Positions 51,305 to 59,493 of a stretch of 64,000 bases of DNA are shown in pieces (position 1 is the stretch's first letter; each line of letters starts with the position of its first letter). Position numbers and translations under genes: made by a program. This DNA is from Pyrinomonadaceae bacterium. GTDB taxonomy: Bacteria; Acidobacteriota; Blastocatellia; Pyrinomonadales; Pyrinomonadaceae. Below the pieces are notes generated by a model that made no database searches, was not told where the DNA came from, and saw only the letters and a list, made by a program, of their open reading frames with translations. The DNA lies in the NCBI GenBank assembly GCA_046261855.1, contig JBHENX010000067.1, positions 21,141 through 85,140 of the forward strand. The letters run 5' to 3'.

Positions 51305-52048
51305 GTGAATATGAAAACTCTCCTTATCCTGCTGCTGACGTTCACCCCGTTGTGGCAGAAACAGTCCCCGCGCCAGGTCCTCTACGATTTTCGTAACGAA
51401 CGCACCACGCGGCCGCAAAGGATCTCACCCGCGATCGAACGCGACGTCCTCTCCAAAGTCTTTCGCAGTTATTTAACCGATCCAAACCGTTGCAAAGCAG
51501 AGTTCGAGGCGGGCGAAGATTTCTTAGCGGGCGCACGGCGCGCAGGGCAGATCGTTCCGGACGTCGCTGAAGTGATCATTGGAAGTTTCACCGCTGCCGG
51601 ACAAACTGAAACGGCGTACCTGATCTTCGTCAACGAGTGCAACGCATCTCACGCTGACAACTACGGTTCGAAGCGGCTTGCGATCTTCTCGGGTCTGCGG
51701 CTTGTGGCCGACATCGATCTCGATTTCAGAAGCGGCGTCGTGTCTAAAACCGATCTCGATAAAGACGGAATCAACGAGTTGCTGATGACCAGCGGTGACA
51801 TGCACCAGGGAGAGATGATCCAAACCGCGGCCCTCGTGAGTCTTCAGAACGGGCGCATGCGTGTCGTTCAGGACTTCGGCACTGTTGTGGAGGACAACTG
51901 TGCTTCACTGAAAAGGGGGAGCGCAGCGAAAGCGAAGGTGCTTTACCTCACAGACGCTGCGCCAGGTCAGATGCCGCGAATAACAGTCGCTCACTTCGCG
52001 GGCCGTTGCGGTAATGTCAGGCGTTGGCGGCCTGCTCGAGCTTTTTGA
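51305..52048 (+). CDS. Secreted hypothetical protein
   Basis: 247 aa. The signal peptide is MKTLLILLLTFTPLW. It contains DLDKDGINELLMTSGD, a calcium-loop-like segment of the FG-GAP/VCBS type. Confidence 0.5.
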   Translation: MNMKTLLILLLTFTPLWQKQSPRQVLYDFRNERTTRPQRISPAIERDVLSKVFRSYLTDPNRCKAEFEAGEDFLAGARRAGQIVPDVAEVIIGSFTAAGQTETAYLIFVNECNASHADNYGSKRLAIFSGLRLVADIDLDFRSGVVSKTDLDKDGINELLMTSGDMHQGEMIQTAALVSLQNGRMRVVQDFGTVVEDNCASLKRGSAAKAKVLYLTDAAPGQMPRITVAHFAGRCGNVRRWRPARAF

Positions 52049-52547
52049 GATCGAGCTTCTTCATCTGCATCATCGCCCGCATCACACGGTCCACTGTCGC
52101 AGGGTCGCTTTGTGTCAATAGCCGCATTAACGCGACCGGTGTGATCTGCCACGATAAACCGTACTTGTCTTTCACCCAACCGCACTCGACTTCCTGTCCG
52201 CCGTCGGCGGTGAGTTTGTGCCAGTAGTAATCGACTTCTTCCTGCGACTCACAGTTCACGACCAATGAGATTGCTTCGGTGAACTTGAACTGTGGTCCGG
52301 CGTTGAGCGCGGTGAAGTGTTGTCCATCGAGCTCGAAAGAAATGGTCATTACCGATCCCTTCGGTCCGGGACCGACTTCGGTGTAATACGAGGTTTCGAG
52401 AATGCGGGAATTCTTGAACACGGACACGTAGAAATTCGCTGCCTCTTCGGCATTGTTGTCAAACCAGAGAAATGTCGTGATCTTCTGCTTGCGGGGTTCT
52501 GTGCGATCTTCATTACGGGTCTGGGGCACTGGATTAGTTGCTGCCAT
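52017..52547 (-). CDS. VOC-superfamily protein (PhnB / 3-demethylubiquinone-9 3-methyltransferase-domain type)
   Basis: AAGGAGAT lies upstream of the ATG at 52547. It reads KITTFLWFDNNAEEAANFYVSVFKNS...GQHFTALNAGP...YWHKLTADGGQEVECGWVKDKYGLSWQI. Confidence 0.7.
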   Translation of the reverse strand: MAATNPVPQTRNEDRTEPRKQKITTFLWFDNNAEEAANFYVSVFKNSRILETSYYTEVGPGPKGSVMTISFELDGQHFTALNAGPQFKFTEAISLVVNCESQEEVDYYWHKLTADGGQEVECGWVKDKYGLSWQITPVALMRLLTQSDPATVDRVMRAMMQMKKLDLKKLEQAANA

Positions 52548-52727
52548 CTGAATATCTCCTTCTAAATTGCAGTGTCTTTTTCTGGACTCTTCACTAGTTA
52601 ATCGAATAAGGGGCTGACGGATCGACACTATCACAGAATTTTTTGTGAAAAGTTTGTCCATAGAAAAGCGGCTGCGTTTTAAGACGCAGCCGCTCTTTCC
52701 AGCGCTTGGAACGAGTCGGTTTTCGTA

Positions 52728-53402
52728 TCAGTGAAACACGATGCCAATTCCGAAGCGGAAGTTGTGGAGCGTTCGTTTCAGATTGCCTGTCGGAGTCGGT
52801 GTACCCGGAACACCAACAGCGCCGAAGTCACTGAAGTCGAAACGCATCGGGTTGTAATCGATCTGGAAAGCGCGAATGTCGATACGATTGCCGACGCGAA
52901 TGTCGAGTCCACCGCCGATCGCGGCTGCGAAGCCGACGTCGTCGAAGTCCGTGAGTTCGTTATCAAACTCGGACAAGTCCGCCGCCGTTCGGCCCACGCC
53001 GACGAGTGCGTGCGCGAAAGGTTTGAACGTTCCTTCCGTGGAGTTGTCCTTGACCTGAATGCCGCCCAGGATATTGTGCAGCCTGACGGTGGTGTTGTCC
53101 GCGCCAAAGCCAAACGATTTTTGATGATACGAGTAGTCAAACTTCGCGCCGAGGTACCGGCTGAAATTCCCGACCACCGAGGCATTGAAACCATTAAAAC
53201 CTTCGCGCTCGTCGAAGATGTCGTCGAACTCGACATCGTCGCCGGGATCGAAATCTTCGACCGGTCCAACGTCGACGCGGTTGTGTGAATAACCGAGGAA
53301 AAGTTCAAAGCGACGGCGGTCCGGATCCTGTGCCATCGCCGTAGTCGTGCAGATGAAACCTGCGATTATGGAGAGTAGTGCGAGAAAACCTTTATTACCC
53401 AT
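52728..53402 (-). CDS. Small outer-membrane beta-barrel protein (OmpA-like porin family)
   Basis: GGAGG lies 9 nt before the ATG at 53402. The signal peptide is MGNKGFLALLSIIAGFICTTTAMAQ. Alternating beta-strand patterns are present. The C-terminus is FRFGIGIVFH. Confidence 0.65.
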   Translation of the reverse strand: MGNKGFLALLSIIAGFICTTTAMAQDPDRRRFELFLGYSHNRVDVGPVEDFDPGDDVEFDDIFDEREGFNGFNASVVGNFSRYLGAKFDYSYHQKSFGFGADNTTVRLHNILGGIQVKDNSTEGTFKPFAHALVGVGRTAADLSEFDNELTDFDDVGFAAAIGGGLDIRVGNRIDIRAFQIDYNPMRFDFSDFGAVGVPGTPTPTGNLKRTLHNFRFGIGIVFH

Positions 53403-53622
53403 GCTTGTGCCTCCGAAATGTAAGTTGCTGCTGTGTGGTGTCGGGAAGTACTCCCAATTTATGGGTAAAGCAGGTATGCGTATGTCCGCTGACGTACCGG
53501 AAGTTTTCAAAAGATCGTGCATAAACTGTCCCGAGCCGATGTTTTGCTGGACCGGCGCTCGGCGGGCCGTTCGGTTCGTGCAAGAATGTGGGGCAACATT
53601 CAGGAACTCAGGGGTGACGCAG

Positions 53623-55586: not shown

Positions 55587-55760
55587 AACGCCGAAGGCGT
55601 TTGCTAATTTCAGCCCAGGGTTTCCTACCCTGGGTTTGAAAAGAGAACTGAAGCCAAACTCTGAAAGAGTTCGCCAACTCCTTCGGAGTTGCGTACGTCG
55701 AGTACGCGAGGTCCCAGGGTTGAAAACCCTGGGCTGAAATTAGCAAACGCCTTCGGCGTT
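55587..55760. mobile_element. MITE-like element: 36-bp perfect terminal inverted repeats around a 102-bp core
   Basis: AACGCCGAAGGCGTTTGCTAATTTCAGCCCAGGGTT (55587-55622) is the exact reverse complement of 55725-55760. The core has no ORF and contains further small hairpins (CCCAGGG..CCCTGGG twice). Confidence 0.55.
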
Positions 55761-55805
55761 CTAACCCAACCCGCTCGGCGTTCTAACCCAACCAGCTTCG
55801 GAGTT

Positions 55806-56609
55806 CTACTGCAACAACCTGGATTTTTCCAGGATTTCTTCCGCGCGCGCGCGAATCCAGTAGTTCTCAGTCAGGTTGATCCAACGTACGGTTCCCGTCG
55901 TGTCCACCAGAAACTCCGCGGGACGTGCGATATCGGCGCCGTTTTCACCCGCACCTGCATGCAGTAGATCGTAACGGCGAATCACCTCCGCCTTCGGATC
56001 AGAAAGAAACGTGAACGTGTAACCCCCCTTCTGCATCAAGTCGCGCGAAACTTCCGGACTGTCAACGCTGATCGCCACCGGACGAATGCCCGCCTGATGA
56101 AAACTCGCGAGGTTCTTTTCGATACTCCGCAACTCGGAGTTGCACGACGGTCACCAGTAACCTCGATAAAACACGAGCAACGCGCCCTTCGGTGCTTTGC
56201 CGTCAAGCGGCGCAGTCAGCAACTCATTGAGCGAAACCTGTCTGCCCGTAGAGTCAGCCAACGCAAACTCCGGCACCTTCCGCCCCACATGCGGCGCATT
56301 CGATGACGACGGCAACCACCGCGCGAAAACAAAGAACCCGAAAAGAAACAACGCGACAAACGCCACGCTCAGCGTCGCAAATATCGACGTGATTACTTTC
56401 GAAAGTGTCTGATGCTTCCGGTCACGCGCGAATCCCCGCCGTATTCCTTTCCACACAAGAAACAACGCCACCACGAACAGCAGCAGGTTGACCCACGGAA
56501 AATCGCGCGTGACCGGCGACCACACAAACACCGCCGGGTAACTGAAAACCGCAACCAGCACGAGCAGAAAACCCACCCAGAGCGGCCAATTAATTTGTCG
56601 AACGTTCAT
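55806..56609 (-). CDS. Membrane-anchored peroxiredoxin/redoxin-like (AhpC/TSA-type) selenoprotein candidate; the in-frame TGA (56153-56151) is read as Sec
   Basis: The track ORFs 56151-56609 and 55806-56132 are in the same frame and are separated only by TGA. The joined sequence reads ...GALLVFYRGYW-U-PSCNSELRSIEKNLASFHQAGIRPVAISVD... The TGA therefore occupies the first Cys of the family WCPxC redox motif. Three TM helices lie at the N-terminus. Confidence 0.7.
56124..56140 (-). promoter_or_regulatory. SECIS-like hairpin downstream of the in-frame UGA
   Basis: On the mRNA the sequence is UGA-CCGUCGUGCA-ACUCCG-AGUUG-CGGAGU. This gives a 6-bp perfect stem starting 10 nt after the UGA. The apical loop AGUUG begins 16 nt after the UGA and contains GU. 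Confidence 0.5.
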
Positions 56610-56619
56610 CGGGGCTCCG

Positions 56620-56982
56620 TTACATGTCTATGAGCGACTTGAATCCGCCGTAAAGCATTCGTTTCACGTCAAACGGCATCTCGCCGCCGGCCTCCATCAT
56701 CTTGTTCATGCGCGGATCGTTCATCACCTTCGCGTTCACCTTGTCGCGATCCGCGCGTGACTTGAAAACGATAAACGAGAACAGAATCGTCTCGCCCGGT
56801 TTCGGTTTGATTACTTTGTTGAATGACGCGCCAAACTTCACGTCGAGATCGTCACCGACTGCTTCAACGTAATGCAGCGCGCCGTGTTCCTTCCAGATCT
56901 TTCCCGCCTTTTGCGCAATGCTGCGATACTGTTTCAGGTTCTGTTCCGGCACGGGGACCACAAATCCATCAACGTAGCTCAT
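56620..56982 (-). CDS. DUF1428 family protein
   Basis: 120 aa. MSYVDGFVVPVPEQNLKQYRSIAQKAGKIWKEHGALHYVEAVGDDL is typical of DUF1428. Confidence 0.7.
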   Translation of the reverse strand: MSYVDGFVVPVPEQNLKQYRSIAQKAGKIWKEHGALHYVEAVGDDLDVKFGASFNKVIKPKPGETILFSFIVFKSRADRDKVNAKVMNDPRMNKMMEAGGEMPFDVKRMLYGGFKSLIDM

Positions 56983-56991
56983 CTCTTCTCC

Positions 56992-57393
56992 TTATTCGCA
57001 GTTAACCATCCACGGAATGCCAAAGCGATCGACGCACATGCCGAATCCCTTGGCCCAGAAAGTCGGACTAAACGGCATCTGCATCGTGCCATTCTCCGCC
57101 AGCTTGTTGAAGATCTCTTCGCCTTTCGCGACGTCTTTAAGACCAAGCGCGATCGCGATTCCTTGCGGTTGTGCGTAATGTCCCGGCGGTGCGTCTGACG
57201 CCATCACAACGGTGTTGCCGACCGTGAACCGTGCGTGCAGCACTTTGTCGCGCCAGTCCGGCGGCACGTGCTCTTCCGAAGGAGTACCGCCGTGCTTACT
57301 AACAGTATCGATCTTCGCGCCGAGCGTTTGCTCGTAGAATCTCAGCGCGTCTTCACAGTTACCATTGAACATCAAATACGGACTCAGTTCCAT
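56992..57393 (-). CDS. VOC-superfamily (glyoxalase/PhnB-like) protein
   Basis: 133 aa. It reads LSPYLMFNGNCEDALRFYEQTLGAKI...HARFTVGNTVVMASD...FWAKGFGMCVDRFGIPWMVN. Confidence 0.7.
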   Translation of the reverse strand: MELSPYLMFNGNCEDALRFYEQTLGAKIDTVSKHGGTPSEEHVPPDWRDKVLHARFTVGNTVVMASDAPPGHYAQPQGIAIALGLKDVAKGEEIFNKLAENGTMQMPFSPTFWAKGFGMCVDRFGIPWMVNCE

Positions 57394-57419
57394 GCTTTTT
57401 CTCCTTACCTATCGAATGA

Positions 57420-57791
57420 TTACCAATGCTTGATTCCGCGGCCGTAAGCAACGAACACGCAAAGCAAGAGCACGATGAATGGCGTGATAGCCAATGCAAT
57501 TCCGTCTCCCGCAATCGTGATGATGACCGCGCCGACCATGACGATTGCCAAACCGGTCGCGGCAAGTGCCGTCAGGCCTTTACGAATCCGGAAGATGCCC
57601 GGCAGGACCAGCCCGAGCGCTCCTAACACCTCAACCACACCAATGAACCTGATGAATAATTCGGGCAGTTGAACCTGATTGGGCGAAGCCATACTCTGCA
57701 TCGTCTCCATCGACAACACCAGCTTGGTGCCGCCGGCGAACAGAAACAAAAGCGCCAGCAAAATCTGAATGACCCAAAGTAGTATGTTCAT
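57420..57791 (-). CDS. DoxX family membrane protein
   Basis: 123 aa with four TM helices. It starts MNILLWVIQILLALLFLFAGGTKL. Confidence 0.75.
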   Translation of the reverse strand: MNILLWVIQILLALLFLFAGGTKLVLSMETMQSMASPNQVQLPELFIRFIGVVEVLGALGLVLPGIFRIRKGLTALAATGLAIVMVGAVIITIAGDGIALAITPFIVLLLCVFVAYGRGIKHW

Positions 57792-57800
57792 CTTTTTCCT

Positions 57801-58157
57801 TTACGCCGCCGGGAGGCCGGAGATCTCCAGCACCGGTCTGATTTCAATAGTTCCGTGTTTAGCAACCGGAATACGTTCAGCGATCTTCATTGCTTCGTCG
57901 AGATCACGCGCATCGATCAAGTAATAACCACCGAGTTGCTCGCGAGTCTCCGCAAACGGACCATCCGTAACCAAACGCTTTCCGTCGCGAACGCGCACGC
58001 TCGTCGCAGTTGCGACCGGATGCAGTGGCCCAGCGGAGAGATACTTCCCTTGTGCGCTCAATTCGCGGGCGAGTCCGGCTGACTCGACGTAACACTGCTC
58101 GCGTTCCGCTTCACTTAAAGAGTTTTCATCGAGATAAACCAGCAACATGTATTTCAT
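57801..58157 (-). CDS. YciI-family (DGPF domain) protein
   Basis: GGTGGAG lies upstream of the ATG at 58157. It reads MKYMLLVYLDE...VTDGPFAETREQLGGYYLID. It is divergent from the sigma factor gene. Confidence 0.75.
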   Translation of the reverse strand: MKYMLLVYLDENSLSEAEREQCYVESAGLARELSAQGKYLSAGPLHPVATATSVRVRDGKRLVTDGPFAETREQLGGYYLIDARDLDEAMKIAERIPVAKHGTIEIRPVLEISGLPAA

Positions 58158-58236
58158 TAGTGCTCCACCTCCAGCTATAAGTCGAACGAGGTGTTGGCGA
58201 ATCGACACCTTCGCGTAAATTTTTTTATCATCAAAC

Positions 58237-59493
58237 GTGCTTCCTAACGCCAATGTCGCTGTCGACGCGGTCTACCGGTCTGACTGGGGCCGCATTGTGG
58301 CCACTTTGATCCGTCAGTTTGGCGACTTTGAGCTCGCGGAAGACGCGGCGCAGGAAGCATTTACCGCCGCCGTCGATCAATGGCGCACTGACGGCGTCCC
58401 CGAAACTCCGAGCGCCTGGATTATCCAGACAGCCAAACACAAAGCCATCGATCGTCTCCGGCGGCAAACTCGACTCCAGGAAAAACTCGAGACTCATCCG
58501 GAGTTCTTTCCGAGCGAGATCATCGATGAGCCAACCTTCAATTGGGGCGAAATTCCTGACGATCGTCTGCGGCTGATCTTCACCTGCTGCCATCCGGCAC
58601 TCGCGCTCGAAGCGCAAGTGGCGCTCACGTTGCGCACCCTGGGCGGACTGCAAACCGATGAGATCGCACGCGCGTTTCTTGTTCCGGCCACTACTATGGC
58701 CCAACGTCTCGTGCGCGCCAAACGCAAAATACGCGATGCCGGCATTCCCTTCACCGTGCCGGACACCAGCGAAATGCCTGAACGTCTCGACGCGGTGCTC
58801 ACGGCCATCTATCTCATCTTCACCGAAGGTTACGCAGCGACTCGCGGCCAGCCACTCATCCGCGCAGACTTGTGCGCGGAAGCGATTCGCCTGGGCCGGC
58901 TCGTCAGAACGCTGCTCGAATCCAACCCCCCGGCCGAAGCCAGTGCGCTCGTTGCGTTGATGTTGCTGCACGATTCCCGCCGCGAAGCTCGACTGGATGA
59001 AGCAGGCGATCTGGTGGTGCTGGAAGAACAGGATCGCAGCCGGTGGAACAAGGAGCAGATCGCCGAGGCGTTGGCGTTAATTGATGAAGCACTCAGCAAG
59101 ACGCCTGGTCCATTTGCGCTTGAAGCAGCGATTGCGGCGGAGCATTGCAAGGCTGCTCGCGCGGAAGACACGGATTGGCCACGAATCGTCACGCTTTACG
59201 ATCTGTTGTACCAACTGCTGCCGTCGCCCGTCGTGGCGTTGAATCGCGCAGTAGCGATTGCGATGGCCCAGGGACCGCAAACAGGTTTGGCAATCATTGA
59301 TGAACTCGCTGAGTCGGGTGAGTTAGACGAGTATCACCTGCTGCATGCCGCCCGCGCTGACATGTTGCGCCGTTTGGGAGCGAACGCAGAAGCGGCGGAA
59401 AGCTACGAACTCGCCTTGAAACTGGCGAGCAACGATAGCGAACGCCGCTTCCTCGAACGCCGGCTGCGCGAAGTGCGCACTCCCGTGTCGTAA
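58237..59493 (+). CDS. ECF-type RNA polymerase sigma factor with a long helical (TPR-like) C-terminal extension (COG4941-type)
   Basis: 418 aa with a GTG start. Region 2 reads [16 protein letters not shown]...[19 protein letters not shown]. Region 4 reads [36 protein letters not shown]. About 230 aa of extension follow. Confidence 0.75.

Follow-up and report, generated by a model that had tools for sequence, protein, structure and literature searches.

Whether a reading frame interrupted by one stop codon is a broken gene, a pair of adjoining genes or a single gene in which that codon is read as an amino acid is the question raised by one locus in a 64,000-nt stretch of DNA, here called the window, from a Pyrinomonadaceae bacterium of the Acidobacteriota (GenBank assembly GCA_046261855.1, contig JBHENX010000067.1, positions 21,141 to 85,140 of the forward strand). 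The locus lies on the minus strand at 56609..55806 and carries an in-frame TGA in the redox motif of a peroxiredoxin-like protein. An earlier note made from the DNA letters had called it a probable selenoprotein gene, and this call is strongly supported here by the alignment of the TGA with cysteine (Cys) in homologs, by selection on the downstream frame and by a conserved hairpin. On this comparative evidence, we are all but certain that the apparently stop-broken gene is intact and encodes a single membrane-anchored redox enzyme with selenocysteine (Sec); UGA153 of its 267 residues is very probably read as Sec.

An in-frame TGA shared by relatives

Reading of the sequence together with its translation gave a complete coding sequence at 55806..56609 on the minus strand, with the ATG at 56609, 267 codons and a terminal TAG at 55808-55806. 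The single internal stop in this frame is the TGA at 56153-56151, codon 153, in the context LLVFYRGYW-*-PSCNSELRSI, which is exactly the junction VFYRGYW-[TGA]-PSCNSELRSI described in the earlier note. The note had also held that two open reading frames (ORFs) are parted by this TGA alone, and we agree: the ORFs of 152 and 108 aa in the mechanically made list are the two halves of one frame, and the start of the shorter one is simply the first TTG past the TGA, at 56132. The proposed Sec codon (56151..56153, minus strand) is conserved among relatives and opens a U-P-S-C redox motif, in which the proposed partner of Sec153 in a selenenylsulfide is Cys156 (56142..56144, minus strand), the only Cys of the protein. 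When Cys was substituted for the stop, the AhpC/TSA domain of peroxiredoxin fold (Pfam PF00578) ran straight through the TGA, covering residues 108-243 (55881..56288, minus strand) with E = 6e-27 and 94.4 bits against a cut-off of 26.

Relatives were scanned with one genome per species, which gave 386 of them, and the best 80 were taken for comparison at the DNA level. All of these 80 loci, which come from metagenome-assembled genomes of Pyrinomonadaceae, Blastocatellia or other Acidobacteriota, carry TGA at codon 153, and the tblastn matches continue in frame to residue 267. A metagenome scan with a Cys-type query at its head still returned TGA genes in 80 of 80 loci, from soil and mostly on metagenome contigs of the Joint Genome Institute (JGI), and the matches in the 160 loci together span residues 1-267. 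The presence of the TGA is far beyond chance: it recurs in every one of the 80 genome loci and the 80 metagenome loci. When the gene of the window and those of loci L167-L169 are added, the set comprises 164 TGA genes with 150 unique 60-nt contexts. This sample consists of the closest relatives and is hence biased to the Sec form, and the protein matches include many Cys forms as well.

Searching with the protein returned three kinds of relative. The first comprised about 30 clusters, 70-89% identical, in which every protein is exactly 152 residues long and ends in FYRGYW at the same stop; the expectation that ordinary gene callers would split the gene is thus borne out by public calls of 152-aa 'hypothetical proteins'. 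The second comprised full-length JGI 'peroxiredoxins' with Trp at the TGA column (P0001-P0003, P0006, P0008, P0009, P0012, P0014, P0016, P0019, P0022, P0025, P0026, P0030, P0032 and P0039, and loci L167-L169). For the three W-type genes whose DNA was fetched the codon is TGA, and since translation table 11 does not yield the JGI protein from this DNA, the Trp is an annotation artefact. The third kind comprised full-length proteins with Cys, encoded by TGC or TGT, at the same column (P0004, P0005, P0007, P0017, P0020, P0027, P0036, P0067 and others), in contexts such as GYWCPAC, AGCRAC and GHGCHAC. The UGA column is therefore a Cys column in continuous homologs, one of which, P0005 (locus L161), is an ortholog syntenic with the window. 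Cys156 was invariant in both homolog alignments (A1 and A2).

Selection on the two halves of the frame was compared by the ratio of nonsynonymous to synonymous substitution rates (dN/dS; Nei-Gojobori, 400 random pairs among 80 aligned genes, namely 79 genome loci and the window). The ratio was 0.107 for codons 154-267 and 0.148 for codons 1-152, at a dS of ∼1.7. Codons 154-267 must therefore be translated, because a dead 3′ half would not give a dN/dS of 0.107. The earlier note had regarded a shared stop without a conserved frame behind it as fatal to the selenoprotein reading, and what we found instead is a downstream frame under purifying selection. The gene represents a subfamily that is widespread in soil Pyrinomonadaceae and has gone unrecognised by gene callers.

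A constrained hairpin in the codons after the TGA

Directly downstream of the TGA, the mRNA can form a hairpin, ACUCCG-AGUUG-CGGAGU, at 56124..56140 on the minus strand (core CUCCG-AGUUN-CGGRG at 56125-56139, apical loop AGUUG at 56130-56134), which is encoded by codons N157-S158-E159-L160-R161-S162. The perfect 6-bp stem that had been reported to begin 10 nt past the UGA, with its loop 16 nt past it, was confirmed at 56140-56124. Folded alone, the hairpin has a free energy of -8.5 kcal/mol (z = -4.5, with none of 200 shuffles as stable), and within a 42-nt context its stability is unexceptional (z = -1.1). Thermodynamics alone is therefore weak evidence for a functional element of this kind, and the case rests on conservation.

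Conservation at the RNA level was measured by counting synonymous changes in the 148 columns in which a degenerate amino acid is present in at least 60 of the 80 aligned sequences. Zero synonymous change was found in only five of them: 153 (TGA), 157 (AAC), 158 (TCC), 159 (GAG) and 161 (CGG). Elsewhere in the same alignment six codons occur at Arg149 and four each at Arg176 and at Ser155, and both Glu codons occur at Glu164 and at Glu172. The frozen codons spell the hairpin core CUCCG-AGUUN-CGGRG.

Pairing follows the same pattern: all 150 unique sequences form the five inner pairs, the loop AGUU is invariant with a free fifth base, and the outer A-U pair forms in 66 of the sequences only. Pair 16-28 is U-A in 99 sequences, U-G in 49 and C-G in 2, and pair 17-27 is C-G in 146, U-G in 2 and U-A in 2. 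In the two most divergent TGA genes that were fetched, L167 (FCVLELRG) and L168 (FCNLELRG), the Ser codon TCC is replaced by the Leu codon CTC, and CGA in place of CGG together with G at position 28 compensates for this, so that all five pairs are kept. Three measures, namely the percentage of paired cells, the number of cells with a change in each partner and the covariation score, lay above the 500 shuffles and the slid controls without exception; the two measures based on counts of pairs and of pair types were weaker, with 29 of 500 shuffles reaching them. Lack of conservation of the hairpin, which had been named in advance as an outcome that would speak against a selenoprotein, is thus contradicted by pairing in 150 of 150 sequences, by the frozen synonymous sites and by the two compensated sequences. 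An overlapping hairpin, UGCAACU-CCG-AGUUGCG, which is often the choice of RNAfold, was rejected: it is broken in 38 of the 150 sequences, does no better than shuffles and has no covariation signal.

As controls, eight Cys-type genes were fetched singly. At the sites that are frozen in TGA genes they use TCT, TCG, GAA and CTT, CTG or CTC (any of these three turning the loop GU into GC), as well as an uncompensated CGA. The five pairs and the AGUU loop are both kept in only two of the eight.

The published model of the bacterial Sec insertion sequence (bSECIS), as given in a 2026 review, has a loop of 3-9 nt on an upper stem of 4-16 bp, G as loop base 1 or 2, in most cases with G or U after it, a distance from UGA to loop of 16-37 nt and a minimum free energy of at most -7.5 kcal/mol (PMC13188914). 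The hairpin here agrees with every one of these rules, with a 5-nt loop A-G-U-U-N, a stem of 5-6 bp, -8.5 kcal/mol and a spacing of 16 nt, which is the lower limit of the range; the earlier note had rightly placed this spacing at the low end for bacterial elements. A search of Rfam at E ≤ 10 over 55700-56700 gave no SECIS family and only one sub-threshold match (Acido-Lenti-1, in the downstream spacer), and at the gathering score no Rfam family was found in the whole window.

Among known elements, the SECIS of the E. coli fdhF type is likewise a short stem-loop inside the ORF just past the UGA with G-U in its apical loop. With 17 nt, the hairpin here is close in length to the minimal fdhF element, and it stands at a similar distance from the UGA (10 nt, against ∼11 nt in fdhF). 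In contrast to the fdhF type, it has no bulged U, its loop is AGUUN rather than GGUC, and no extended lower stem is conserved.

Active-site chemistry and the nature of the inserted residue

By hydropathy and charge counts, the N-terminal part of the protein would form a membrane anchor of three hydrophobic helices (residues ∼9-96; 56322..56585, minus strand), and the loop between helices 2 and 3 is strongly basic (residues 54-71, with 7 Lys or Arg). Because of this basic loop and the positive-inside rule, the predicted topology is N-in and C-out, so that the catalytic domain would lie on the periplasmic side of the membrane. For P0007, a homolog of the Cys type, the AlphaFold model (predicted local distance difference test score 90) has helices at 8-26, 39-59 and 67-97 followed by a thioredoxin/peroxiredoxin fold, in which a helix runs from residue 154, right after the Sec/Cys column. 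The mechanism that we propose is as follows. UGA153 would be read as Sec by SelB and tRNA-Sec, recruited by a minimal SECIS hairpin that lies in the codons of the NSELR(S/G) helix. Sec153 would then act as the attacking nucleophile, Cys156 would resolve it to a selenenylsulfide, and the Sec153-Cys156 bond would be re-reduced by some thiol reductant, giving a putative Prx-like thiol:disulfide (or hydroperoxide) reductase.

In the field, selenoproteins of this kind are named by domain and Sec motif (PMC9312934): PF00578 with UxxC or UxxU defines the 'Prx-like thiol:disulfide oxidoreductase' selenoproteins, and Sec peroxiredoxins have TxxU (PMC1794560, PMC9312934, PMC13188914). The protein has the PF00578 domain, and its U153-P-S-C156 is a UxxC motif. 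By domain and Sec motif it represents a new, unannotated, membrane-anchored subfamily within the known Prx-like thiol:disulfide oxidoreductase class (reference member WP_010940744.1 from Geobacter; Zhang & Gladyshev). With this class it shares the AhpC-TSA domain and a UxxC at the helix start after strand 1. Common to both are also Cys-containing homologs and a SECIS directly downstream inside the coding region. It differs in that a membrane anchor of three helices precedes the domain at the N-terminus and in that the family, as sampled, is confined to soil Acidobacteria of the Pyrinomonadaceae/Blastocatellia with aerobic cultured members, whereas in a 2006 survey the Prx-like members were mostly from anaerobic Deltaproteobacteria and Clostridia.

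The alternative that survives best concerns the chemistry and leaves the selenoprotein call as it is. The protein might be a true peroxiredoxin, in which Cys156 attacks peroxide and Sec153 resolves or activates; we think this unlikely, yet it keeps a real share of the probability. By sequence and fold, the nearest solved structures in the PDB are PrxQ/BCP and AhpE (2cx3, 3hjp, 1xxu and others), ahead of ResA, and Foldseek placed the P0007 model in the peroxiredoxin fold with target TM-scores of 0.88-0.90 to Bcp4 and AhpE. Aligned to 2cx3 and 2ywn, C156 falls on the column of their peroxidatic Cys, and the invariant R229 (ARPAEF) lies one residue off the catalytic Arg of BCP/AhpE. The earlier claim that the TGA occupies the catalytic Cys position therefore needs to be divided: it stands with respect to the full-length homologs, where the TGA aligns with the first Cys of CxxC, and does not stand with respect to true peroxiredoxins, whose peroxidatic Cys matches C156 and whose Thr or Ser of PxxxT/SxxC matches the Sec. 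The same alignment speaks against a peroxiredoxin mechanism, for the Pro and Thr columns are filled by R149 and U153 and the PxxxT/SxxC motif is absent, leaving RxxxUxxC in its place. Moreover, the helix of the P0007 model starts at 154, which would put residue 153 at the exposed N-terminal position of a CxxC. In thioredoxin-fold enzymes, the N-terminal residue of CxxC sits at the helix N-cap and is the exposed nucleophile. Known Sec peroxiredoxins are of the TxxU type with a peroxidatic Sec, and UxxC is the thiol:disulfide oxidoreductase type (PMC13188914). The known PrxQ/BCP and AhpE proteins are also soluble, in contrast to the membrane-anchored protein here.

We therefore retain a UxxC-type active site on a peroxiredoxin scaffold as the description that the aligned residues give. 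With TlpA, ResA and CcmG, which are extracytoplasmic thiol:disulfide oxidoreductases, the protein has in common the W-[C/U]-x-x-C motif, anchoring in the membrane and a domain predicted to face outward. They differ in having one helix rather than three, and in fold and sequence the protein is nearer to BCP/AhpE. No NCBIfam model reached its cut-off for the read-through protein, the best sub-threshold matches being ResA (NF002854, 45.5 bits against 170) and SelL_rel_redox (44.9 against 120), and ResA chains occur among the PDB matches. Cytochrome c maturation genes, CcdA and DsbD were all absent from the vicinity of the selenoprotein gene.

Next in standing is readthrough without Sec: a suppressor or tRNA-Sec-like tRNA could insert Cys, Trp or another residue at the UGA (e.g. 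a selC*-type tRNA-Cys), or the hairpin could drive readthrough independently of SelB. It is here that the points that weigh against reading the codon as Sec belong. The window was said to lack sel genes and tRNA-Sec, and so it does: ARAGORN found no tRNA gene in the window or in 60 relative loci, and tblastn with E. coli SelA, SelB and SelD found no match in the window or in any of the loci. This absence of selA, selB, selD and tRNA-Sec extends over ∼1.5 Mb of related loci, all of them from one neighbourhood, and is hence uninformative. We found no paper reporting use of Sec in Blastocatellia, Pyrinomonadaceae, Pyrinomonas or Chloracidobacterium, the cultured relatives are obligate aerobes (PMC4644332), and aerobes are said to retain few selenoproteins (PMC13188914). 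Some Cys-type genes (L164 and L166) still carry the hairpin sequence, so that the codon choice is not exclusive to TGA genes. Classical covariation is also thin, as only two sequences, which are related, have compensatory changes, perhaps from one event, and three of the six pairs never vary; hence the freeze of synonymous sites, and not covariation, is the main evidence for the RNA element. Finally, comparative evidence of this kind establishes readthrough and an RNA signal rather than the chemical identity of the residue, and both Cys-carrying tRNA-Sec-like tRNAs and allo-tRNAs of Acidobacteria have been described (PMC7609411).

Even so, readthrough without Sec appears improbable to us. A UGA placed exactly at a redox Cys with Cys homologs is the classic Sec/Cys signature, and the hairpin conforms to the bSECIS rules for elements of the SelB type. 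In a review of these tRNAs (PMC7609411), reports of selC* tRNA-Cys concern anaerobic Firmicutes, Thermodesulfobacteria, Nitrospirae and Proteobacteria, and none concerns Acidobacteria. Moreover, a plain TGC or TGT would serve for Cys, and it would be difficult to see why 164 genes strictly keep a TGA with a hairpin. Decoding of Sec is known in some Acidobacteria (PMC1794560), including Occallatibacter (PMC12013277).

Much less probable still, and in our judgement very nearly excluded, is that the locus is a pseudogene or consists of two genes, one for a membrane protein of 152 aa and one for a 108-aa product that starts from the TTG at 56132. Mechanical ORF lists and the public calls of 152-aa hypothetical proteins do present it in this way. 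It is contradicted by 164 genes, diverged to ∼55% identity, that share one stop and show no second lesion, by the low downstream dN/dS, which holds also for the six codons between TGA and TTG, by one Pfam domain and one predicted fold that cross the TGA, and by the continuous Cys-type homologs.

Weakest of all, with next to no probability left, is a genetic code in which TGA is an ordinary sense codon for Trp or Gly, as the Trp in JGI proteins P0001-P0003, P0006, P0008 and others might suggest: TGA is the commonest terminator of the long ORFs of the window (22 of 49), a PhnB-like gene and an outer-membrane protein (OMP) beta-barrel gene, both with Pfam domains, end in TGA, P0001 gains a nonsense tail of 40 residues when its true TGA stop is read as Trp, and none of the three fetched W-type genes gives its JGI protein under table 11. 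Other conserved in-frame TGAs were screened for in the window and ∼170 loci, and this family alone was found, the remaining clusters being off-frame shadows or gene junctions. At 52017-53522 on the minus strand, the OMP beta-barrel gene and the PhnB-like gene stand in one frame with a TGA between them, which is an ordinary gene junction.

Evolution, neighbourhood and wider meaning

Evolution of the site was followed on a neighbour-joining tree, without support values, that was rooted on the Cys clade SMYAGCRAC. Its deeper branches are without exception of the Cys type. The TGA genes lie in a single derived clade, in which the Cys-type proteins P0004 and P0005 are nested and the Cys group P0017, P0020 and P0027 stands among divergent TGA genes. 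Of the four nested Cys genes for which DNA was available, three have hairpin-like sequence: L164 has an identical core, L161 and L166 have GC for GU in the loop, and in L165 (P0017) the hairpin is lost. Outgroup Cys genes (L172-L174) have a weak hairpin at most, with -3.6 to +1.2 kcal/mol for the imposed structure. The hairpins in the nested Cys genes look like fossil SECIS elements left after reversion from Sec to Cys. The crude tree fits a single gain of Sec and hairpin, followed by reversions that would have left decaying fossil hairpins.

Taken together, these results allow a combined picture that we offer tentatively, at somewhat less than an even chance of holding in all its parts. The gene would encode a lineage-wide, outward-facing, membrane-anchored selenoenzyme of the abundant soil Pyrinomonadaceae, with a SECIS cut down to 15-17 nt within the codons of the NSELR helix, which arose by one change from Cys to Sec and was followed by several reversions. 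If this is true, RNA and protein constraints would coincide in the NSELR codons of a catalytically conserved helix, and a selenoenzyme in Pyrinomonadaceae would be at odds with the view that selenoproteins are seldom kept by aerobes. By implication, a dominant soil family with aerobic cultured members would have a Sec-decoding trait and a requirement for selenium. The gene is mis-annotated wherever it is seen, being entered either as a hypothetical protein of 152 residues or as a 'peroxiredoxin' that has Trp in the active site, and its recognition would correct the annotation in hundreds of genomes of soil Acidobacteria. With a compact conserved SECIS and natural Sec/Cys pairs, the family would also be a clean system for asking what a bacterial SECIS minimally needs and why Sec is used over Cys in an oxidising compartment.

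Upstream of the selenoprotein gene, a run of genes assigned by Pfam lies on the same minus strand, encoding YCII (57801-58253), DoxX (57420-57791), a glyoxalase/PhnB-like protein (56992-57393) and DUF1428 (56620-56982). The run (56620..58253) is tightly spaced, with gaps of 9-26 nt, and with the selenoprotein gene as its last member it is a probable operon. Divergent from it on the plus strand (58237..59493) lies a gene assigned by Pfam to a sigma factor of the extracytoplasmic function (ECF) type with a C-terminal DUF6596 domain. In eligible genome loci, the sigma factor was found upstream, divergently oriented, in 33 of 57, DoxX in 34 of 65, YCII in 29 of 62 and DUF1428 in 19 of 71, and the Cys-type ortholog locus L161 has the same neighbours. 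The position of the gene at the end of this run, divergent from an ECF-type sigma factor, suggests a role in an ECF-controlled envelope response to oxidative or thiol stress.

Downstream, the spacer between the selenoprotein gene and a convergent ankyrin gene contains two inverted repeats, CCCAGGG-N7-CCCTGGG, at 55614-55634 and 55713-55760, where none would be expected by chance. The second of them (55713-55760) overlaps the Acido-Lenti-1 RNA match, which scored 22.7 bits against a gathering score of 37. Just past the TAG, at ∼55753-55792 on the minus strand, two copies of the 18-nt direct repeat GTTGGGTTAGAACGCCGA are separated by 4 nt, and the second of them runs into a small AACGCC-GAAG-GCGTT hairpin.

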